Assembly (NCBI GenBank): GCA_016190205.1
Contig: JACPQZ010000045.1
Coordinates: 33,923-97,922, forward strand
From: Candidatus Omnitrophota bacterium
Lineage (GTDB): Bacteria > Omnitrophota > JACPQZ01
Reading direction: 5' to 3'
DNA: 64,000 nucleotides
Shown here: piece after piece, positions 1,375-64,000 of the stretch
Position numbering within the stretch: position 1 is the stretch's first letter
Layout: each line of letters starts with the position of its first letter
The notes under the pieces: generated by a model
Told to the model about the DNA's origin: nothing
Seen by the model: only the letters and a program-made list of their open reading frames with translations
Databases searched by the model: none
Position numbers and translations under genes: made by a program

Positions 1375-3311
1375 AACTCGAATCTCTGCTCATGGAATCG
1401 CGTGTCTTTGATTCTCCCCAAGCCTTCCGCGAGCACGCAACCATCCGCGACGCGAACATCTGGAAAGAGTCAGACCGCGAGTTCGAGGACTTCTGGGCCC
1501 GCTGGGCGACGGAACTGTCCTGGTTTAGGAAATGGGACCGCGTCTTGGATTGGAAGGCACCCAACGCCCGCTGGTTTGTGGGGGGACGGCTCAACGCGAG
1601 CGTCAATTGCCTGGACCGGCACCTCACCACGCCGCGGCGCACGAAGGCCGCCCTCATCTGGGAAGGGGAGCCCGGGGAGCGCCGGACCCTGACGTACTGG
1701 GACCTCTACAGGCAAGTCCTACGTTTCGCCAATGCCCTGAAGGCTCTCGGCGTCAAACGGCAGGACCGCGTGGCGATTTATCTCCCCATGGTACCGGAAC
1801 TCGTGGTCGCTATGCTCGCCTGCGCGCGCATCGGCGCGGTCCACAGCGTCGTCTTTGCAGGTTTCAGCGCGGAGGCCCTCAAAGACCGTATCCAGGACTC
1901 AAGCGCGTGCCTTCTCATCACGGCGGACGCTTCTTACCGCCGGGGGAGGCTCATCCCCCTCAAGCGTTTTGCCGATGAGGCCGTGGCTCAATGCCCTTCG
2001 ATCCGCCGCGTCGTAGTGTTTAAGCGGAGCGGCATGGAGATCGAATTTAGCGCCAAACGCGATCTTTGGTGGCACGAGCTCATGCGCGAGACGGCCTGCG
2101 AATGCCCCCCCGAAGAGATGGATGCGGAAGACACGCTTTACATCCTATATACCTCGGGCACCACCGGAAAGCCCAAAGGCATCGTGCACACCACGGGCGG
2201 ATACCTGACAGGGGTGACCGCCACCACGCAGTGGGTCTTTGATCTCAAGGAGAATGATGTCTACTGGTGTACCGCCGACATCGGCTGGGTGACCGGTCAC
2301 AGTTACGTCGTGTACGGCCCGCTGGCGTGCGGCGCCACCGTCGTCATGTACGAAGGCGCTCCGGACTGGCCTGACCGCGGACGTTTTTGGAAAATGGTCG
2401 AGGAACACGGGGTATCCGTTTTTTACACCGCCCCGACCGCCATCCGTTCTTTCATGAAGTGGGGGGCCGAGTGGCCCGAGCGGCACGACCTTTCTTCCTT
2501 AAGGCTTTTGGGGACCGTGGGCGAGCCCATTAACCCCGAGGCCTGGGTGTGGTATTACAAAGCAATCGGCCGGGAGCAGTGTCCCATCGTCGACACCTGG
2601 TGGCAGACTGAAACCGGCATGATTATGATCACACCTCTGCCGGGCATCACCCGCATGAAGCCTGGTTCCGTCACCCGCCCTTTTCCGGGCATTCGGGCGG
2701 AGCTATTGAACGTGAAAGGCGAGCGCGTGGAGGAGGGGGGAGGGTATCTTGCCATCACGCGCCCGTGGCCGGCCATGCTGCGCTCGATCTACGGCGATCA
2801 CGACCGTTATGTCAAGGAGTATTGGTCCAAATGGAAGGGCGACATCTATTTTCCCGGCGACGGGGCCAAACGCGACCGTGACGGTGATTTCTGGATTCTG
2901 GGAAGGGTGGACGACGTCTTAAACGTGGCGGGCCACCGCATCGGAACGATGGAGGTGGAAAGCGCCCTGGTAGACCACCCTCGAGTGGCAGAGGCGGCCG
3001 TGGTCACCCGTCCGCATGATGTCAAGGGCGAGGCCATCGTGGCATTCGTAACCTTAAAAGAGGGGGGCGAGCACAATGACCACCTCTCCGGGGAAATCAG
3101 GGAACACGTGGCCAAAAAGATAGGGGCCTTTGCGCGGCCCGAGGAGGTGATCTTTTCACACGATCTCCCCAAGACGCGGTCGGGTAAAATCATGCGCAGG
3201 CTCTTGAGAGATATTGCGGCGGGAAAGGTGCTCGGCGACACGACCACCCTGGCTGATCCTGTCGTGGTGGCAGAACTTAAGGAACGCTATGAGGCACAGT
3301 ATGGAGCATAA
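1365..3311 (+). CDS. acs: Acetyl-CoA synthetase (AMP-forming)
   Basis: 648 aa with AMP-binding motif [11 protein letters not shown]. Acs-specific N-terminus (WARWA...) and a C-terminal '[17 protein letters not shown]' lysine-acetylation loop. Confidence 0.92.
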
Positions 3312-7920: not shown

Positions 7921-8664
7921 TTGACGAAAAAGAAAGGGTCAATCATGAATAAAGGATCTATAGGAGTTGTCGTAACTATAGCCTGCGGTCTTATTATCCC
8001 TTATGCGCAGCAGGTTCAGGCAGAAGATACTGCAGCGACGAAAGTTCTCAAACAGGGCCTCGTGGGCGCCGGGGTAGGCGCCATCAGCGCCGAGGCCTCG
8101 GGCGGGAAGGCCGGGAAGGGGGCGCTCGTGGGCGCCGGGACGAACGTTATTGGAAGTGCGCTTCTGGACGCCTTGAGCGGCAGCAGCGCCCCTCCAGCAC
8201 CCGCACCTCCTCCTAGACCCCGTTATTATGAACAGCCACAACCCCAATACCAGGACCCGTATTACGAAGAAGAGTACTATGAGCCGGCGCCTCCTCCGCC
8301 GCCGCCTGCTCCACGGCGCGTGATCCGAAGGACGGCGCCTGCCCCTCAACCTGCTCAAAACCAATCCACAAAAATCCTCAAACAGGGCCTTGTGGGCGCC
8401 GGGGTAGGCGCCATCAGCGCCGAGGCCTCGGGCGGGAAGGCCGGGAAGGGGGCGCTCGTGGGCGCCGGGACGAACGTCCTCGGGAGCGCGCTCTTGGATT
8501 TTTTCAGCAATAGCTCCAGCCAGAACACACAGCAATACTACGAAGAGCCTGCCCAGCAGGAATACTATTACGAAGAAGAACAGCAGTACTACGACGACCA
8601 GGGCACGACTTCAGAAACCAGTCCCACGCGCCGGACTCGCCGCGTGATCCGACAGGGGTACTGA
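7921..8664 (+). CDS. Secreted Gly-zipper / Pro- and Tyr-Glu-rich repeat protein
   Basis: Signal peptide. Two copies of 'KILKQGLVGAGVGAISAEASGGKAGKGALVGAGTNV' (glycine-zipper-like), each followed by PPPAPPP and YYEEE low-complexity tracts. Confidence 0.5.
   Translation: MTKKKGSIMNKGSIGVVVTIACGLIIPYAQQVQAEDTAATKVLKQGLVGAGVGAISAEASGGKAGKGALVGAGTNVIGSALLDALSGSSAPPAPAPPPRPRYYEQPQPQYQDPYYEEEYYEPAPPPPPPAPRRVIRRTAPAPQPAQNQSTKILKQGLVGAGVGAISAEASGGKAGKGALVGAGTNVLGSALLDFFSNSSSQNTQQYYEEPAQQEYYYEEEQQYYDDQGTTSETSPTRRTRRVIRQGY
8044..8479 (+). repeat. Intragenic 103-bp near-perfect direct repeat (2 copies)
   Basis: 8044-8146 and 8377-8479 differ at only 2-3 nt. Spacing is 333 bp, so the copies are in frame. 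Confidence 0.85.
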
Positions 8665-8683
8665 CCTCGGGGTAACACCTCTT

Positions 8684-8788
8684 GTCGCTGGCCGCTGGTC
8701 GCTAGTCGCTGGCAAGCAAGAACCCCATCAGTTTAAAGACCGTTTCATTATGCTAGCGACCAGCGACTAGCGACTAGTTACTAGCGAC
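8684..8788. repeat. Palindromic heptamer-repeat element (GTCGCTG/AGCGAC class)
   Basis: gtcgctg-gccgctg-gtcgcta-gtcgctg ... loop ... ctagcga-ccagcga-ctagcga-ctagtta-ctagcga. The arms are reverse complements (for example gtcgctagtcgctgg). Confidence 0.5.
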
Positions 8789-8812
8789 GGGCGGTGATAA
8801 TAATCCGGCCAA

Positions 8813-11571: not shown

Positions 11572-11667
11572 CGCCGCCCGAGTCATTAGGCGAAAAGATC
11601 GAGAGGAGACTACAGACTGAAGACTTAACGAAAACCACCTCTTTTAATCTGAAGTTTGTTTTTTTGC

Positions 11668-11728
11668 GATGCACGAAGCACGAAGCACGATTCAGTCTGT
11701 AGTCTGTGGTCTGTAGTCTTCAGTCTTA
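11668..11728. repeat. Heptamer tandem arrays (GCACGAA x3, then GTAGTCT-like x4)
   Basis: gcacgaa-gcacgaa-gcacgat-tcagtct-gtagtct-gtggtct-gtagtct-tcagtct. The GCACGAA heptamer recurs at 34163, 55256 and 61561. Confidence 0.5.
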
Positions 11729-11730
11729 AC

Positions 11731-12552
11731 ATGGTCACGCACGCCCAACATACCAGAACGCCCGCAGTAGCGGGCCAATTCTATCCCAGCGATCCCAAAG
11801 AGCTTTCTGAAACGGTAGAAAAGCTCCTTCCTAAAAAGGCGAGCGCCGTTCCGCGCAAGGCGGTTATCGTCCCGCATGCAGGGTATATCTATTCCGGCAA
11901 GATTGCGGGTAACGTGTATGCGCGCACGGCGGTTCCAAGCCTTTCCATACTCGTAGGACCCAACCATACGGGCAGAGGGGCGAGTTTGAGTTTATACCCG
12001 GGCGGGTCTTGGATGACCCCGTTAGGAGCCATGCGGGTCAATCAAGATTTCGTGCAAGCCATCCGAAGAGAGTTCGATGCCTTCAGTCTGGATACCCTGG
12101 CACACACCTATGAACACAGCCTGGAGGTCCAGCTTCCCTTCCTAAAACATATCAGCGCGCAGTCAACCATCGTGCCCATTATCGTGGGTACGGACCATGT
12201 TCCATCCCTCCTAAAAGCGGGTTCAGCGCTGGGGAGGGTTATCCGGGACTGGAAGCAGCCCTCATTACTCATTTGTTCCACGGATATGACACATTATGAG
12301 CCTTTAGTGACAGCCCAGCGAAAAGACAAAATGGCCATTCAGGCGCTCACTTCCCTGGATCCGAAGGAGCTGGCCCTTGTCGTGGCGGAGAACGCTATAT
12401 CCATGTGCGGATGGGCCCCTGCCGTCATGATCTTGGCCGCCTGCCGTACCCTGGGTGCCACGAAGGCCGAGTTCATAGCCTACGGGACAAGCGCGGATAC
12501 AACTGGAGATCGTTCCAGCGTCGTGGGTTATGCGGGGATGGCATTCGGCTAG
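11731..12552 (+). CDS. AmmeMemoRadiSam system protein B (Memo-like)
   Basis: 'AVAGQFYPSDP...VIVPHAGYIYSGKIAG...HSLEVQLPFLKH' matches the Memo1/AmmeMemoRadiSam B family. Confidence 0.7.
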   Translation: MVTHAQHTRTPAVAGQFYPSDPKELSETVEKLLPKKASAVPRKAVIVPHAGYIYSGKIAGNVYARTAVPSLSILVGPNHTGRGASLSLYPGGSWMTPLGAMRVNQDFVQAIRREFDAFSLDTLAHTYEHSLEVQLPFLKHISAQSTIVPIIVGTDHVPSLLKAGSALGRVIRDWKQPSLLICSTDMTHYEPLVTAQRKDKMAIQALTSLDPKELALVVAENAISMCGWAPAVMILAACRTLGATKAEFIAYGTSADTTGDRSSVVGYAGMAFG

Positions 12553-18241: not shown

Positions 18242-19140
18242 GTCCTGTGCTCGTGCTGGGCACGGTGGCCATTGATTCTGTGGAGACACCTTTCGGCCGG
18301 AAAAAGGCGGTGCTGGGGGGATCGGCGAGCTATGCCGCGTACAGCGCCAGTTTCTTCGCACCCGTCCGGCTGGTCGCCTGCGTAGGCTCTGATTTTCCAG
18401 AGCGCTACACCCGGGTCCTGCGTGAACGGCCCATCGACACGGCAGGTCTTGAAAGGGTGCCCCATGAACGCACGTTCCGCTGGCGCGGCCGTTATGGGGC
18501 GGATCTCGGAGAGGCCACTACGCTTGCCACGCACCTCAACGTGCTTGAGCGCTTTAACCCCAACATTCCTCTGGATTATCTGGACACCCCCTGCGTTTTT
18601 CTTGCAAATATTGATCCGGTTATACAAGAGCGCGTCTTGAACCATCTGAAGCCGCGGTGGGTGGTTCTGGACTCCATGAATTACTGGATACAGCATAAGA
18701 GGAAGGATCTCTTGCGCGTGGCGAAACGAGCTGATCTGGTTGTCTTGAACGACGCAGAGGCCCGGGGGCTTGCCCAGGAGGCGAGTCTGGTTCATGCGGC
18801 ACGACGCCTAAAGAAATTCGGCTTGAAGCGTCTGATCATTAAAAAGGGCGAGCACGGCGCGCTCCTCTTTGAAGACGACAAGTTTTTTCTAGCTCCGGCT
18901 TATCCGCAGCCCGCGACGGTAGATCCTACGGGGTGCGGTGACGCCTTTGCCGGCGGGCTCACGGGATTCCTGGCATCTCAGAAAAAGATTACCCGGCGGC
19001 TTTTGAGACGTTCCGTTATAGCCGGAAGTGTGATGGCCTCTTTCACGATCGAGGATTTCGGACTCAAGCGGCTGCGCAGACTCACGCATGCGGAAATCCG
19101 AAACCGCCTGACTGAATTTCACGACCTCATCCGTTGCTAA
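18238..19140 (+). CDS. PfkB-family carbohydrate kinase
   Basis: Ribokinase-like fold with the C-terminal 'DPTGCGDAFAGGLTGFL' anion-hole motif. Could be the heptose-7-P kinase (RfaE domain I); not provable from sequence. Confidence 0.65.
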   Translation: MSPVLVLGTVAIDSVETPFGRKKAVLGGSASYAAYSASFFAPVRLVACVGSDFPERYTRVLRERPIDTAGLERVPHERTFRWRGRYGADLGEATTLATHLNVLERFNPNIPLDYLDTPCVFLANIDPVIQERVLNHLKPRWVVLDSMNYWIQHKRKDLLRVAKRADLVVLNDAEARGLAQEASLVHAARRLKKFGLKRLIIKKGEHGALLFEDDKFFLAPAYPQPATVDPTGCGDAFAGGLTGFLASQKKITRRLLRRSVIAGSVMASFTIEDFGLKRLRRLTHAEIRNRLTEFHDLIRC

Positions 19141-19145
19141 TACTC

Positions 19146-19228
19146 GCGGCGTATTTGTTCGTCGTTCGTTGATCGGTTATCGGTCATCGCAAACTTTTTC
19201 TTGCAATAACCGATTACCGAACACCGAT
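19146..19228. repeat. Palindromic heptamer-repeat element (CGGTTAT class), copy A
   Basis: tatttgttcgtcgttcgttgatcggttatcggtcatcgcaaac ... ttgcaataaccgattaccgaacaccgataatcg. The arms are inverted repeats. The head is a direct repeat of the head of copy B at 19743. Confidence 0.5.
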
Positions 19229-19425
19229 AATCGAAGTTGCACGTAAAGCGTACACGTGAGGCGCGCAAAATAACAACATATAGCGTCTATTGCGCAGCGC
19301 AGTCTAGGTATAGTGTCAGAATCATGTTACGAAATGTGCCCGTAGAAATAATTTGTTTTTGAAGTTATAATACGCAACACGCACGACGCGGTACGCACTA
19401 CGAAGTACTGTGCCTAAGTCATGAT

Positions 19426-19497
19426 GCGGGTGTAATTCAGCGGCAGAATGCAAGCTTCCCAAGCTTGACGTTGTGGGTTCGACTCCCATCACCCGCT
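19426..19497 (+). tRNA. tRNA-Gly (anticodon CCC)
   Basis: 72 nt. Acceptor GCGGGTG/CACCCGC, D-arm ATTC/GAAT, anticodon stem CAAGC/GCTTG with loop TTCCCAA, T-loop GGTTCGACTCC, discriminator U. Confidence 0.85.
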
Positions 19498-19702
19498 GTA
19501 TTTATCCGCGTAACGTGATGGGAGTCGAACCCAGGGAAAAGGGTTCGGGGAAAACGGGAGTTTTCCCCGAGGCACGGCGCATCTCAGGTGAGGGGGGAAT
19601 CTAAGGGGGGTGCGCAGCACGAGTGAATAATGGATGATCGCAAGCACCCCCCTTAGGGAGCATCGGCGTTTCAAATTTGATGGATCAAAGAGCCGATGCG
19701 AC

Positions 19703-19727
19703 GGGTTCGACTCCCATCACCCGCTGT
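19703..19727 (+). repeat. Exact 25-nt direct repeat of the tRNA-Gly 3' end (T-arm + acceptor)
   Basis: gggttcgactcccatcacccgctgt at 19473-19497 and again at 19703-19727. An inverted copy of the T-arm (gatgggagtcgaaccca) lies at 19518-19534. Confidence 0.8.
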
Positions 19728-19742
19728 TGACATGTCGGGGTA

Positions 19743-19822
19743 GATTTGTTCGTCGCTCGGGGATCGGTTATCGGGGATCGCAAACCCCGGATGATTGCGA
19801 TGACCGATCACCGATAACCGTA
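19743..19822. repeat. Palindromic heptamer-repeat element (CGGTTAT class), copy B
   Basis: gatttgttcgtcgctcggggatcggttatcggggatcgcaaaccccggatgattgcgatgaccgatcaccgataaccg is an imperfect palindrome. With copy A it brackets the tRNA locus. Confidence 0.5.
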
Positions 19823-19836
19823 CTGGTGAGTCAATA

Positions 19837-20484
19837 ATGACAAAGATTGTTTCAGTCATTCTGGTCTTATTCGTTACGGGCTGCGCAGGCAACCAGATCA
19901 TTGCCCCCATCGCCACGCAAGCCGGGTTTTATCACCGCGTCGAAAAGGGACAGACGCTGTGGGCCATCTCACGTCAGTACGGTCTGACCGTCGAAGAGCT
20001 GATTGAAGCCAACAAGATTTCGGAGGCCTCCCGCATCGAATCAGGACAGCTTTTGTTCATACCCAGGGAGAAATCCAAGATCCGGAGCACCCCTTCGGAG
20101 GCCCCCGCGAATCATTCGTTCGTTTGGCCCGTACAGGGCCGCGTGATCTCGGGGTTCGGTACCCGACAGGAAGGAATAACGAACAAGGGCATACACATCG
20201 CCGCCAATGACGGGACCAATATTGTGGCGGCCTTGGACGGGACCGTCTCGTTCGCGCAAGAATCTGTGCGCGGGTTTGGTCACATGATCATCATCGACCA
20301 CATGAATAATTACCAAACGGTGTACGCACATAACCGGCAAAATCTTGTTAAAGAAGGGATGCGCGTCAGGAGAAGTGATGTGATTGCCAAGGTGGGATCC
20401 ACGGGCCGCGCCACGCTCCCTTATTTACATTTTGAAATCCGCAAAGATCACAAACCCAAAAACCCTTTCTACTACTTGCCTTAA
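19837..20484 (+). CDS. LysM-domain M23 peptidase lipoprotein (NlpD-like)
   Basis: Lipobox 'LFVTGCAG'. LysM 'YHRVEKGQTLWAISRQYGLTVEELIEANKI'. M23 'GIHIAANDGTNIVAALDGTV...HMIIIDH...TVYAHNRQ...GSTGRATLPYLHFEIR'. Confidence 0.85.
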   Translation: MTKIVSVILVLFVTGCAGNQIIAPIATQAGFYHRVEKGQTLWAISRQYGLTVEELIEANKISEASRIESGQLLFIPREKSKIRSTPSEAPANHSFVWPVQGRVISGFGTRQEGITNKGIHIAANDGTNIVAALDGTVSFAQESVRGFGHMIIIDHMNNYQTVYAHNRQNLVKEGMRVRRSDVIAKVGSTGRATLPYLHFEIRKDHKPKNPFYYLP

Positions 20485-34067: not shown

Positions 34068-34195
34068 GTACGTGCATCGTACTTCGTTCATCGTGCTGCG
34101 TGGGTGGGGCGTGCAGTTCTTCGTAGTTACAGACCCTCGGCAACTGGCCTATTACCCCTTTACGATGCACGATGCACGAAGCACGAAGCACAAAC
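34068..34195. repeat. Imperfect palindromic heptamer-repeat element (GCACGAA/CGTGCAT class)
   Basis: Left arm cgtgcatcgtacttcgttcatcgtgctgcgtg, right arm cgatgcacgatgcacgaagcacgaagcac. 7-nt periodicity. Lies between the thiolase and dehydrogenase genes. Confidence 0.45.
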
Positions 34196-43545: not shown

Positions 43546-44649
43546 ATGGAACGGGCAATCCTGGTATTAGAATCGGGCACCAAGCGAATCATCGATTTTA
43601 ACCATCATACCATCCGCCTGCTTCGTTTCGTCCCGAAGGAGCTCCTGGCGCTTTCATTCCAGGACTTTTTCTCTCGCGACGTAAAGGATTTCGTCTTGGA
43701 GGGGTACCTGAAGGCCCTCCACAAATCTCAATGCCGTGTGGATCAGGTCCTGATCAACCGAAAAGACGGTCCGCCCGTACCTGTAAGCATAGAATATCAA
43801 TGTCCAGATCCCAAGGGGAACGTGACGGTAATTATTTACCCCCTGTCAGACCAAAACGGCAACGGGGAATGGGATCCGCAGCAGGAGCTTACAGAGCTCC
43901 GGCAGGCATACCGGCGCCTTTCGGACTTGAACCTAACACTGAAGAAGAGGATTACACACCTGGCAGAGGTGCTCGCGCTTGCGGACGCCCGTTTCGATTC
44001 CGCGCAGGATGAGATGACAGAATCCCTCAGACAAAAGGAGGGCACGAAGAAAGAATGCCTGTCTCTCATGGCTTCGATCATCCGCTCCGTGGAAGAGCGC
44101 GATCCTTTGTCACGCGGCCACTCAGACCGCGTGGTGGTCTTCGCCTTCGAGATTGCGCAGGCCCTCAAACGCCCGGAAAAGGAGCTGGACATCATTCACA
44201 ATTACGGAGCGCTTTACGACATCGGTAAGGTGGGCATTGCGGAGGCCACGCTCACCAAACAAAACCCGCTGACCGACGAAGAAAGGCTTCTCATCACGGA
44301 TCACCCTGTGATCGGAACAAGAATCTTAAAGCACATACCGTGGATGGAGCCTGGTCTTGACCTCGTCCGACACCATCATGAGCGTTATGACGGATCCGGG
44401 TATCCCGATGGTCTCAAGGGCAAAGACATCCCGCTCCTGGCGCGTATTTTCATGGTCGCCGATGCCTTTGAGGCCATGACCCGTGACCGCGCGTACCGCA
44501 GGCGCCTTCCGGTCTTCAAGGCTATTCAGGAACTGGAACGACTTCAGGGAGCGCAGTTTGATCCCGGCATCGTAGATACCTTCAAAAACAAAGTCCTCTC
44601 ATCTCAACCCCACCTCCTCAACGAAACGAACGACGAATCCGCAGCCTGA
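43546..44649 (+). CDS. HD-GYP c-di-GMP phosphodiesterase with N-terminal sensory (PAS-like) region
   Basis: 'HSDRVV...YDIGKVGIAEATL' and 'HHHERYDGSGYPDGL' HD-GYP signature. Confidence 0.8.
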   Translation: MERAILVLESGTKRIIDFNHHTIRLLRFVPKELLALSFQDFFSRDVKDFVLEGYLKALHKSQCRVDQVLINRKDGPPVPVSIEYQCPDPKGNVTVIIYPLSDQNGNGEWDPQQELTELRQAYRRLSDLNLTLKKRITHLAEVLALADARFDSAQDEMTESLRQKEGTKKECLSLMASIIRSVEERDPLSRGHSDRVVVFAFEIAQALKRPEKELDIIHNYGALYDIGKVGIAEATLTKQNPLTDEERLLITDHPVIGTRILKHIPWMEPGLDLVRHHHERYDGSGYPDGLKGKDIPLLARIFMVADAFEAMTRDRAYRRRLPVFKAIQELERLQGAQFDPGIVDTFKNKVLSSQPHLLNETNDESAA

Positions 44650-44892
44650 GAAAACTTGAGACTATAGACCTGAGACCCGAGACCCAAAGTCAAAGGTACA
44701 GCTGCCCGCCGCCTTGCCAGTTTCTTGTCTCGTGTCTCTTGTCTCGTGTCTCTTGTCTCGTGTCTAAAGTCTCCTTAGCCTGAGAAGACTTGAGACTATA
44801 GACCTGAGACCCGAGACCCAAAGTCAAAGGTACTGCTGCCCGCCGCCTTGCCAGTTTCTTGTCTCGTGTCTCTTGTCTCGTGTCTAAAGTCT
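44646..44892. repeat. Tandem duplication, 2 x about 122 bp, each unit internally pseudo-palindromic and rich in GAGACCC/GAGACAC heptamers
   Basis: Units start near 44646 and 44768 and are nearly identical (cttgagactatagacctgagacccgagacccaaagtcaaaggtac.gctgcccgccgccttgccagtttcttgtctcgtgtctc...). Confidence 0.85.
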
Positions 44893-44989
44893 CCTTGCGA
44901 TTGACTTCACGAGCAGTCTATGATATTTTGACGGTGCCGTTACCTGCCGGCTGACCTCTTTTTGACTACCTGACAACGTTAGCAAGTGA

Positions 44990-50704: not shown

Positions 50705-51367
50705 ATGCAAGAAGATTGGTTCGAACTCCTGAAGGCTCGGGAGACCGCTTCTTACCCGCCCAAACTGCTTTTTTACCGTTTCCGCGGGCCCGTTATGACC
50801 ATCGGGCGTCATACCCATAAAGAAGAGGTGTACCGTTCCCACGAAGGTTCCCGCTTGAAAGAGCGCACCGTCCGCCGCGCCACGGGAGGGGGGGCCATCT
50901 TCCATGCCGGGGGGATGTGCTACTCATGGATCAGCAGGGGAAAGACCACCCGCTCCGGCCGAAACGAGTGCGTGTACTGGCTTCGAGACATGTTGCTTGC
51001 AACGCTCGAGCCGCTGGGAATCTTGGGCAAGACCCGAGACCCGAGACCCGAGACCCGAGCAAGAACCCTGGGCTCCTGGTGCGCCTTCGAGGAAGCCGAA
51101 ACAGATCTAATCATCGGACACAAAAAGCTGGGGGGCATGGCCCAGCGCTTATTTAAGGACGCCATTCTCATCGAGGGTTATCTGACCCTGCGCCGCCGCG
51201 AAACTATCTGGATGGAACGCATCGCCGCCCGCGGGATCCTTGAAAAACACAGCGCGCGTCCAGTATCCTTGGAAGAACTTGCTGGAAGACCAGTCCATTA
51301 CGACGAAATCGTCAGCCGATTCATGCACATATCCCATGACTTCCGAACCCGATCTTGCCCGGCGTAA
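50705..51367 (+). CDS. Lipoate-protein ligase / octanoyltransferase-like (BPL/LPL catalytic domain)
   Basis: 'RRATGGGAIFHAGG...YSWI' and 'GHKKLGGMAQRL' BPL_LplA_LipB motifs. Directly follows gcvPB. Confidence 0.6.
   Translation: MQEDWFELLKARETASYPPKLLFYRFRGPVMTIGRHTHKEEVYRSHEGSRLKERTVRRATGGGAIFHAGGMCYSWISRGKTTRSGRNECVYWLRDMLLATLEPLGILGKTRDPRPETRARTLGSWCAFEEAETDLIIGHKKLGGMAQRLFKDAILIEGYLTLRRRETIWMERIAARGILEKHSARPVSLEELAGRPVHYDEIVSRFMHISHDFRTRSCPA
51029..51058 (+). repeat. In-frame heptamer array (GAGACCC x4) inside the lipoyl-ligase CDS
   Basis: caagacccgagacccgagacccgagacccgagc encodes KTRDPRPETRA. The same heptamer occurs in the intergenic tandem repeat at 44672. Confidence 0.85.
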
Positions 51368-55255: not shown

Positions 55256-55282
55256 CCGTGCTTCGTGCTTCGTGCTTCGTGC
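55256..55282. repeat. Heptamer array CGTGCTT x3 (reverse of GCACGAA class)
   Basis: ccgtgcttcgtgcttcgtgcttcgc immediately after the dcd stop. Confidence 0.6.
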
Positions 55283-55306
55283 TTCGCAACAGAGAGGAGG
55301 AGAGTT

Positions 55307-61560: not shown

Positions 61561-61593
61561 CCGTGCTTCGTGCTTCGTGCCTCGTGCTTCGTG
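61561..61593. repeat. Heptamer array CGTGCTT x4
   Basis: ccgtgcttcgtgcttcgtgcctcgtgcttcgtgg between the mutase and the JAMM gene. Confidence 0.6.
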
Positions 61594-61605
61594 GATCGTT
61601 CGTAA

Positions 61606-63616: not shown

Positions 63617-63698
63617 TCCGTGACCCGTGACCCGTGAATTGTGAACTGCGGTATATCTACTTATGCTAGCGACGAGCGACGAGCGACGAGCGACAAAC
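63617..63698. repeat. Heptamer arrays (CCGTGAC x3; AGCGACG x4)
   Basis: tccgtgacccgtgacccgtgaattgtgaa ... gctagcgacgagcgacgagcgacgagcgac. The AGCGAC unit is shared with the element at 8684-8788. Confidence 0.6.
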
Positions 63699-64000
63699 GT
63701 GCCAATAATCACGCTGCTCACAGACTTCGGCACTAAAGATTCCTACGTAGCCCAAATGCAGGGAGTGATCTTAAGCGCCCTGCCGGAGGCGCGCATCGTT
63801 CATCTGGGACATGAAATCCCGCCGCAGAACGTCCGCAAGGCCGGTCTCTTCCTGCTGGCGGCCTATGGGTATTATCCGGCGGGGACCCTGCATGTGGTGG
63901 TCGTCGACCCCGGCGTGGGAACCGGACGTAAAATTCTAGCCATCGAAACAAGCCGCTACCGCTTCCTTGTACCCGATAACGGCCTCATCGGCCCTGTGCT
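63699..64000 (+). CDS. SAM hydroxide adenosyltransferase family protein (DUF62), 5' partial
   Basis: GTG start. 'IITLLTDFGTKDSYVAQMQGVIL...VVDPGVGT' N-terminal signature. Runs off the window end. Confidence 0.5.
   Translation, partial: MPIITLLTDFGTKDSYVAQMQGVILSALPEARIVHLGHEIPPQNVRKAGLFLLAAYGYYPAGTLHVVVVDPGVGTGRKILAIETSRYRFLVPDNGLIGPV

Follow-up and report, generated by a model that had tools for sequence, protein, structure and literature searches.

Prophages and genomic islands land chiefly in genes for tRNAs and transfer-messenger RNA (tmRNA). In the islands catalogued by Islander, an intact tRNA gene (tDNA) is followed by a displaced 3′ fragment in the same orientation that runs from the T-arm to the gene end, and candidates that lack an integrase open reading frame (ORF) or are shorter than 2 kb are rejected (PMC4383910). 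Cis-mobilizable elements (CIMEs), which retain attL and attR but carry no integration or transfer genes, are a recognized outcome of decay and have been described as decay products of ICEs (integrative and conjugative elements) or IMEs (integrative and mobilizable elements) (PMC5704250). For integron attC sites and the attP hairpin of CTX-phi, recombination proceeds between a single strand and a double strand (PMC4792948, PMC3442271). The locus described here lies in a 64,000-nucleotide stretch of DNA from a Candidatus Omnitrophota bacterium (contig JACPQZ010000045.1, positions 33,923 to 97,922), hereafter called the window, in which 228 bp of additional DNA follow a tRNA-Gly(CCC) gene. With somewhat better than even confidence, this insert can be interpreted as a miniature, ORF-less, site-specific integrative cassette that targets the T-loop and is mobilized in trans.

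The tRNA gene at 19426-19497, like the parts of the insert described below, is read on the plus strand. It is intact, encodes no CCA, and is the sole tRNA gene that ARAGORN finds in the 64-kb window; Rfam assigns it to RF00005 with 63.9 bits (E = 1.5e-11), against a gathering score of 29. The inserted unit behind it occupies 19500-19727 and, owing to a direct repeat at its ends, can equally be written as 19475-19702. The repeat is a 25-nt exact copy, GGGTTCGACTCCCATCACCCGCTGT, at a spacing of 228, and consists of the last 23 nt of the tRNA plus 2 flanking nt. Its proximal copy, X1 (19475-19499), extends from the GGG of the T-stem 5′ strand to 2 nt beyond the tRNA 3′ end and has the character of an attL-type core, and the distal copy, X2 (19703-19727), is an attR-type, displaced fragment of the tRNA 3′ end with 100% identity to X1. 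A 15-nt spacer, ATTTATCCGCGTAAC (19500-19514), leads from X1 to a segment called X′ (19515-19533), in which the T-arm and the beginning of the acceptor 3′ strand recur, inverted and without a mismatch. X′ can be paired with either repeat: its 19 nt are 100% complementary to 19474-19492, and 18 nt are complementary to 19703-19720, the first 18 nt of X2. The 18-mer concerned occurs three times in the window against an expectation of 0.15, and a count of three was reached in none of 100 shuffles.

The body enclosed by X′ and X2 is composed of hairpins. A purine-rich junction, AGGGAAAAGGG, begins at 19534 and is followed by hairpin H1 (19544-19571; junction and hairpin together, 19534-19571), in which TTCGGGGAAAAC-GGGA-GTTTTCCCCGAG forms a stem of 12 pairs, including one terminal G-U pair, capped by a loop that is of the GNRA type on the plus strand. 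Hairpin H2 (19601-19656) has a perfect 13-bp stem with arms CTAAGGGGGGTGC and GCACCCCCCTTAG at 19601-19613 and 19644-19656 and a 30-nt loop, and hairpin H3 (19660-19699) has a perfect 8-bp stem, GCATCGGC/GCCGATGC, with an inner stem of 5 bp and is followed by GAC. Pairing of X′ with X2 encloses the three hairpins in one branched fold, and the predicted energy of 19498-19730 is -113 kcal/mol compared with -78.5 +/- 4.3 kcal/mol for shuffled sequences (z = -8.0). The minus strand folds almost equally well, at -105 kcal/mol. The sole ORFs to overlap the insert are mechanical ones of 43-67 aa, and neither the ORF list nor tblastn with the integrase of a viral contig considered below reveals an integrase remnant or ORF fragment in the 203 nt between the repeats. 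Most of the anatomy given by the original prediction for this locus therefore stands as described, including the tRNA-Gly(CCC) gene, the recurrence of its 25-nt tail at 19703-19727, the GC-rich hairpin between the repeats, and the lack of an ORF in the enclosed segment. An inverted T-arm copy is also present, as had been claimed, but its extent of 19518-19534 has to be corrected to the 19 nt at 19515-19533.

Relatives of the host provide evidence that this DNA is an addition to an older arrangement. In the contigs carrying the two closest homologs of the upstream PfkB kinase, L056 (68% identity) and L055 (65%), a nearly identical tRNA-Gly(CCC) gene lies directly after PfkB, and the gene order in L055 is conserved as PfkB, tRNA, one ORF, and LysM/M23. 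Neither contig has X′, a duplicated 3′ end, or a heptamer palindrome (a feature of the window discussed below) after the tRNA; because L056 ends 52 nt past the tRNA, X′ at the offset seen in the window can be excluded there and the distal repeat cannot. Judged by these two syntenic tRNA loci that are free of the insert, the 228 bp is lineage-specific extra DNA at a conserved tRNA site. A partial duplication maintained in related genomes with no insertion polymorphism would have spoken against an integrative origin, and the opposite was observed. A search of genome contigs for further relatives by way of the neighboring AAA_16 protein found none. This protein has one distant homolog, on a contig (L003) that is cut before the tRNA region. 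The identical locus is present in two independent Logan assemblies and is thus not a one-off assembly artifact.

The same design recurs behind many other tRNA and tmRNA genes. A scan for a T-arm followed by its inverted copy, GGTTCGACTCCC-N20-50-GGGAGTCGAACC, which samples a single T-loop sequence (GACTCCC), matched 52 loci in a collection with one genome per species and 56 loci in JGI metagenomes, for a total of 108, and had no match in viral contigs. By a rough estimate that assumes 5x10^5 tRNA or tmRNA genes with the same T-loop, multiplied by 31/4^12, about one match would be expected by chance in the genome collection. The left arm is the end of one tRNA or tmRNA gene at 47 of 52 loci from genomes and at 39 of 56 from metagenomes, so convergent pairs of tRNA genes can be rejected as the cause of the pattern. 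Among the target genes are tRNAs for Arg(CCT), Glu(CTC), Leu, Gly(CCC/TCC), Ala, Thr, Gln, and Pro as well as tmRNA, and according to the record titles of the genome loci the hosts include members of Actinomycetota, Clostridia, Gastranaerophilales, Deltaproteobacteria, Gemmatimonadota, Spirochaetota, and Patescibacteria, as well as one DPANN archaeon. The arms exceed the searched 12-mer by at least 4 nt in 38 of 92 distinct cases, compared with 1.6% expected, and thus X′ tracks the gene beside which it lies.

A direct repeat of the 3′ end of the gene is found within 330 nt in many of these loci, with a length of at least 12 nt in 47 distinct cases, at least 15 nt in 43, and at least 18 nt in 28. 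Repeats measure 15-28 nt in the 43 cases, and repeats of 21-45 nt that cross terminators occur in L092 and L109. From X′ to X2, the inserts span a median of 137 nt. When 18 inserts were folded singly, X′ was paired with the distal repeat around one to four hairpins in most of them. Copies related to the insert in other genomes are always located at tRNA or tmRNA 3′ ends, and the window itself holds no other copy. Among 17 comparable loci, Rfam recognized tRNA and tmRNA only. Separately, six Actinomycetota loci that match the pattern (L062, L094, L116, L127, L132, and L161) are near-perfect palindromes, AGGTTCGACTCCCGCCG-loop-CGGCGGGAGTCGAACCT, in which ARAGORN calls no tRNA, and these probably represent a different kind of repeat.

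Within families of inserts, base pairing is conserved while sequence and target can change. Eight distinct copies behind tRNA-Glu(CTC) share a consensus fold of 32 pairs, of which 12 show two-sided compensatory changes and 2 show one-sided changes; the compensatory pairs surround an invariant purine-rich internal loop, GUGAAU/ARAG. Inserts L099 and L106 belong to one body family (86% identity over 115 nt) that is found at both tRNA-Leu(CAG) and tmRNA, each copy being flanked by the 3′ end of its local gene. A Gastranaerophilales family, marked by the motifs GGGTTCTTACCTCTC and GTGACATTTAGTCAC, likewise uses tRNA-Arg(CCT) and tmRNA as targets. When L060 is compared with L081, the region averages 86.5% identity, and a 137-nt stretch of the insert comprising the terminator spacer, X′, the body, and X2 is 100% identical. 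Whole units of repeat, spacer, X′, and body also occur in head-to-tail arrays that hold 1.9-2.3 copies and repeat every 124-226 nt, namely in L065 (124 nt), L091 (175), L109 (195), L121 (137), L131 (226), L147 (178), and L152 (167). The copies are 100% identical in four of these arrays (L065, L109, L147, and L152), which indicates very recent duplication or repeated insertion.

The insert in the window has a relative behind a tRNA-Gly(TCC) gene in L154, a contig from a metagenome. Window positions 19536-19574, which cover the junction and H1, are identical to the L154 insert at 32 of 39 positions, and the alignment score of 39 was reached by none of 500 shuffles (15.6 +/- 2.5). Both inserts follow the same layout of X′, purine-rich junction, H1 with a GGGA loop, H2, GGA, H3, GCGAC, and T-arm copy. 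The string GCGAC also stands directly 5′ of the T-arm copy in Actinomycetota tmRNA inserts, and a grouping of the window with those inserts is suggested by layout and short motifs alone. Body similarity is weak for L156 and L087 (22 and 42 of 500 shuffles, respectively, reach the score), and similarity to L061, L060, L099, and L092 is weak or absent, with more than 100 of 500 shuffles reaching the score.

Syntenic loci from relatives of L154 were retrieved by means of the gene beside its tRNA, and in what follows percentages refer to the neighboring protein compared with the L154 query. Four allele states are present at this one tRNA-Gly(TCC) site: an empty allele in L174 (92%) and L166/L167 (91%), the full allele of L154, which holds one unit of 135 nt together with 19 nt of another, a body-less allele of 44 nt in L165 (92%) that retains the spacer, a degenerate X′, and a partial repeat, and an X′-only allele in L169 (76%). 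The host flank TTCTTATTTCTTGCCC (as in L154, with 1-2 substitutions in L165 and L174) aligns across the empty, body-less, and full alleles. Occupied and empty versions of such a site, whose comparison had been proposed for the window, can therefore be set side by side in this lineage. Close to this tRNA-Gly(TCC) gene, at L154:9640-9705 and in L169 (reverse complement of 1942-2500), is an unrelated palindromic insert whose ends are CCCCCACACC...GGTGTGGGGG. In the latter contig it interrupts the host sequence TCTATTTAC/TAATGATG, which is intact in L166, and it looks like a separate element resembling MITEs (miniature transposable elements with inverted repeats).

A link to an integrase is provided by a viral contig. 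The 18-mer alone proved too common to serve as a search probe and was dropped, as most of the 51 viral contigs containing it carry ordinary phage tRNAs. One of the contigs, L027 (IMGVR_UViG_3300017960_000356), has a tyrosine integrase ORF at 1910-3045 with a Pfam Phage_integrase match (E = 5e-23) and a SAM-like domain. This ORF ends 20 nt before a 24-nt fragment of the tRNA-Gly(CCC) 3′ end, CGGGTTCGACTCCCATCACCCGCT, at a spot where there is no tRNA, and the fragment is identical to window positions 19702-19725, corresponding to X2 and the preceding C. The 9-mer ATTTATCCG, with which the spacer in the window begins, follows this core as well, starting 2 nt past its CCCGCT in the window and 4 nt past it in L027, a difference of one 2-nt alignment gap. 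Since the integrase adjoins an identical 24-nt core, the same T-loop-to-end segment, with the same left boundary, is by this comparison used by an integrase-bearing element. The L027 site is a candidate for the attP or attR of an element with this tRNA as its target.

These observations can be assembled into a proposed life cycle for the cassette. Its target would be the segment from the T-loop to the 3′ end of tRNA and tmRNA genes, and its unit would be made up of X, which repeats the tRNA 3′ end, X′, the short spacer between the two, and two or three hairpins as the body. X1 would then complete the working tRNA in the chromosome, and X2 would be the displaced fragment, giving the attL/attR signature of a tyrosine-integrase crossover in the T-loop. 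The predicted junctions are tRNA...CCCGCTGT-TGACATGTCGG for the empty site and ...GATGCGAC-GGGTTCGACTCCCATCACCCGCTGT-ATTTATCCG for a circle or tandem. Because the element encodes no recombinase, mobilization would have to occur in trans, possibly by an integrase with matching tRNA specificity. Because X′ pairs with X over 18 bp and the stems covary within families, the form under selection might be a folded single strand, either of DNA, in which the X′/X stem would mimic a double-stranded attB, or of structured RNA. X′ could allow a single strand to present the core as a duplex, in the manner of integron attC and the CTX-phi attP hairpin, and a role for RNA may exist in place of this DNA role or in addition to it.

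Comparison with tDNA islands supports the integrative part of this proposal and makes its unusual features apparent. Like those islands, the insert has an intact tDNA with a cognate, same-orientation 3′ fragment, related units form tandem arrays at the same tDNA, and a copy of the same core is linked to an integrase; the direct repeat thus behaves as the att-type duplication of a tRNA 3′ end that had been suspected at this locus. The insert differs in that it measures 228 bp rather than 2-200 kb and carries neither an integrase nor any other gene, and a class of this kind is filtered out by Islander because an integrase ORF and a length of at least 2 kb are required. X′ is a second peculiarity. 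Classical double-stranded att sites do not need such a segment, and we know of no classical attP site in which an inverted core copy adjoins attL.

Integron attC sites and the plus-strand attP of CTX-phi share more of the internal design. The order of core repeat, inverted core, variable structured middle, and core repeat is the same, a folded single strand can present a duplex copy of the target site, AAC/GTT occurs in the paired boxes (GAAC in X′, GTTC in X), sequence is less conserved than structure, and cassettes can be ORF-less and arranged in arrays. The matches of GTCGAAC in X′ and GTTCGAC in X to the attC R″ (RYYYAAC) and R′ (GTTRRRY) boxes, 6 of 7 positions each, are nonspecific, as any T-loop gives them. 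There are also clear differences from these sites. The target is a tRNA or tmRNA T-arm in place of attI or dif, the 18-bp stem is perfect and lacks the extrahelical bases typical of attC, the folded part is branched and 100-200 nt long (206 nt for the unit in the window, compared with 57-141 nt for attC), and the unit lies at a tRNA gene instead of in a cassette array beside intI/attI. A single-stranded intermediate of the insert is purely an inference.

MITEs offer another comparison, since they too are small, ORF-less, and nonautonomous, with hairpin potential and with occupied and empty alleles. Perfect terminal inverted repeats of 18 bp are present in the insert (19515-19532 and 19703-19720, 100% identity). 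However, these repeats copy the neighboring gene and not a transposase-binding end, both the site and the orientation of insertion are strictly specific, and the flanks GCGTAAC ... CCGCTGT show no target-site duplication. Overall, the data show an attL/attR-type duplication with its left edge in the T-arm, orientation-specific insertion, an absence of cargo, copy numbers and occupancy that vary, and base pairing that is under selection. The insert is best described as a nonautonomous tDNA-integrating element, with a real chance that a new mechanism is involved. A much more tentative extension, for which the chances are clearly less than even, is that a widespread and uncatalogued class of ORF-less elements homes to T-arms, recombining as folded single strands or by way of an element RNA guided by X′; such elements would be retargetable, 100-230 nt long, and dependent only on a host or helper recombinase.

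Several considerations weigh against a trans-mobilized cassette. No integrase was found in the window or beside the 108 loci, as judged by tblastn with a single query (the L027 integrase, which had no match in the window or at any other locus) and by reading 16 large downstream ORFs by hand, and mobilization in trans is accordingly unproven. Read by eye without a family search, these ORFs are housekeeping-like (examples include leucyl-tRNA synthetase, Obg GTPase, ribonucleotide reductase, and a P-type ATPase) and none was recognized as an integrase, with one ORF, in L077, that could not be placed. Circular double-stranded intermediates of 100-230 bp would be physically awkward. A crossover in the T-loop would bring the acceptor strand of the element into the tRNA, and switching among tRNA and tmRNA targets is then difficult to account for unless additional steps are assumed; target duplication would accommodate such switching more readily. 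L154 is the sole clear sequence homolog of the body in the window, and the allelic variation in its lineage could in part reflect deletions rather than insertions. The 9-mer common to the window and L027 might be a chance match, and Pfam searches of the L027 flanks do not settle whether the right flank is of phage or host origin. Finally, G-U pairs are about equally frequent on the two strands of the elements (130 of 2143 against 116 of 2107, the stems being almost purely Watson-Crick), and thus neither RNA nor one DNA strand is singled out as the functional form.

The alternative that survives best, although it is judged unlikely, is that the insert is an immobile, resident structured RNA gene or tRNA 3′ trailer that arose by local duplication of the tRNA tail. 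Such an RNA would be transcribed together with the tRNA or from a promoter of its own and retained for its activity; it might control tRNA maturation through competing X1/X′ and X′/X2 helices, or might serve as a stalk for RNase III processing. The strong predicted fold is consistent with this idea, as are the better folding of the plus strand in 35 of 47 elements, the GNRA-type loops and purine-rich internal loops that read correctly on that strand, and the full conservation of the 137-nt stretch shared by L060 and L081. The window also has no Rho-independent terminator between the tRNA and X′, and neither does its family of inserts. In a read-through transcript, the X1/X′ helix is predicted to outcompete the cloverleaf (-55.1 versus -28.2 kcal/mol) unless X2 captures X′. 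In an alternative fold of 19426-19727, X′ takes up X1, the 5′ acceptor strand of the tRNA finds its partner in the acceptor strand of X2, and a separate T hairpin is formed by X2, which results in a giant tRNA-like fold with a 228-nt insertion. This structure is computed at -147.3 kcal/mol, compared with about -138 to -141 kcal/mol for the tRNA plus the closed element.

Other findings are difficult to reconcile with an immobile RNA. Several other families have a plus-strand Rho-independent terminator within the spacer between the tRNA and X′, and the appearance of one body family at different genes, the varying copy number of arrays, and the empty, full, and body-less alleles all point to insertion dynamics. 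G-U pairs are no more common on the plus strand than on the minus strand. No Rfam 15 family matches 19498-19727 at its gathering score and nothing credible appears at E <= 10, the best subthreshold match being ylbH (17.7 bits against a gathering score of 50). The covariance-model scan that had been suggested for the segment therefore offers no known structured RNA to explain it. A tmRNA, a permuted tmRNA, and a leftover convergent tRNA were considered and rejected, as ARAGORN finds a single tRNA, neither ARAGORN nor Rfam (RF00023) calls a tmRNA in the window, and the minus-strand sequence beside X′ is not tRNA-like. It should also be noted that RNA cargo and mobility are mutually compatible.

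Decay of a large integrative element, such as a prophage or island from which the integrase and cargo were deleted to leave the ends next to attL and attR, is a further possibility that we consider improbable. The tDNA with its displaced 3′ fragment is the classical island signature, and an integrase-bearing element with the same 24-nt core exists in L027. The insert also shares with CIMEs its bounding att-type repeats, its lack of integration and transfer genes, and its need for an outside integrase (PMC5704250). It differs from them in having about the size of a bare attP and a conserved, covarying, multi-hairpin architecture with an X′ repeat. To our knowledge, CIMEs have no fixed internal design. 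Random deletions should not repeat one compact design, with X′ beside the tRNA and two or three perfect hairpins, in many phyla, nor would they be expected to give bodies conserved across targets, compensatory changes in stems, or tandem units that are 100% identical. In addition, the 203 nt between the repeats in the window hold no trace of an ORF or integrase. The recurrent compact design thus argues against simple ICE or IME decay, and no parent element was found. The original prediction had left a choice between a remnant of an excised or decayed element and a tiny nonautonomous element. The latter is the better option, and random decay fits poorly because the same design is found at dozens of tRNA and tmRNA genes, in conserved families, with compensatory changes and exact arrays.

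A cut-and-fill enzyme that produces a long target-site duplication, whether a casposase- or Cas1-like protein or an unfamiliar transposase, would make the element consist of the spacer, X′, and the body, with each of the two 25-nt repeats a copy of the target, and is regarded as a long shot. It would readily explain how one body family can occur at tRNA-Leu and tmRNA with each copy flanked by the 3′ end of the local gene, and in that family the spacer is also homologous between the two targets when the sequences are read by eye. Casposons use tRNA 3′ ends and duplicate 14-15 bp. However, the ends of a unit composed of spacer, X′, and body are not terminal inverted repeats, the 21-45-nt repeats that run through terminators in L092 and L109 exceed any known target duplication, and the conserved right end GCGAC-GGGTTCGACTCCC looks like a part of the element and not like copied target sequence. 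Among the 16 downstream ORFs read by eye, none was seen to encode a Cas1-like protein or a transposase. A one-off replication accident with no function or mobility, in which template switching or slippage at the T-arm palindrome yielded an inverted and a direct duplication, is very improbable: template switching could plausibly occur at a palindrome such as the T-arm DNA, and the window has a single copy, but the body of about 170 nt is not derived from local sequence, it has significant homology to an insert at a different tRNA of another organism (L154), and the design recurs about 100 times.

The surroundings of the trans-mobilized cassette proposed here include other repetitive DNA that can be separated from it. 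The locus is flanked by the PfkB kinase gene, which ends at 19140, and a LysM/M23 peptidase gene, which starts at 19837. An AT-rich stretch before the tRNA had been recognized previously, and 19200-19399 indeed forms the minimum of GC content in the neighborhood (0.44 versus about 0.58). Within it, 55 nt upstream of the tRNA, is a promoter-like plus-strand site, TAGAAA-17-TATAAT (19343-19371), with 10 of 12 consensus matches; it is only suggestive, as chance predicts one site of this quality there as well. Two palindromes of about 90 bp that are built from heptamers and are 82-87% alike flank the locus at 19144-19233 and 19735-19823. Their presence had been reported correctly, but the view that they bracket the locus as one unit does not hold, because similar arrays are common in the intergenic regions of the window and the palindromes are missing from relatives that keep the tRNA (L055 and L056). 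For the same reason, the palindromes were rejected as ends of the element or of a mobile tRNA cassette.

Heptamer arrays or palindromes are found elsewhere in the window at 8673-8799, 11600-11735, 34070-34194, 44638-44893, 51030-51056, 55256-55286, 61561-61605, and 63620-63699. The heptamer differs with each intergenic locus (examples are GCTGGTC, GCACGAA, GAGACCC, GTGCTTC, and GATCGGT), and an array is often followed by its own inverted complement, resulting in long imperfect hairpins with z-scores down to -6.8. These repeats recall the short tandemly repeated repetitive (STRR) heptamers of cyanobacteria. At 44638-44893, a 122-nt tandem unit is repeated with 94% identity at a spacing of 134 nt and is made of GAGACC(C/T) and (T/G)TGTCTC heptamers, with a GC-rich core at its center. 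A 131-nt direct repeat, 92% identical, lies at 8038-8168 and 8368-8498 with a spacing of 330 nt.

Occupants of tRNA and tmRNA genes that are smaller than a kilobase and carry no genes are unseen by standard island finders, which require an integrase and at least 2 kb (PMC4383910), and this might be why such units are uncatalogued. No description of this insert design was found in searches of the full-text literature, although one may still exist, and Rfam 15 has no model for it. For annotation, the units place tRNA 3′ fragments, long palindromes, and tandem arrays directly behind essential RNA genes, and where no terminator intervenes, competition with tRNA folding is predicted. If mobile, the units would rank with the smallest site-specific integrative elements so far known, would offer a natural model of a minimal att site, and might become a source of portable recombination sites that are defined by structure. 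If they instead encode RNA, they would constitute a new class of structured RNAs tied to tRNA loci across phyla, including the little-studied Omnitrophota.

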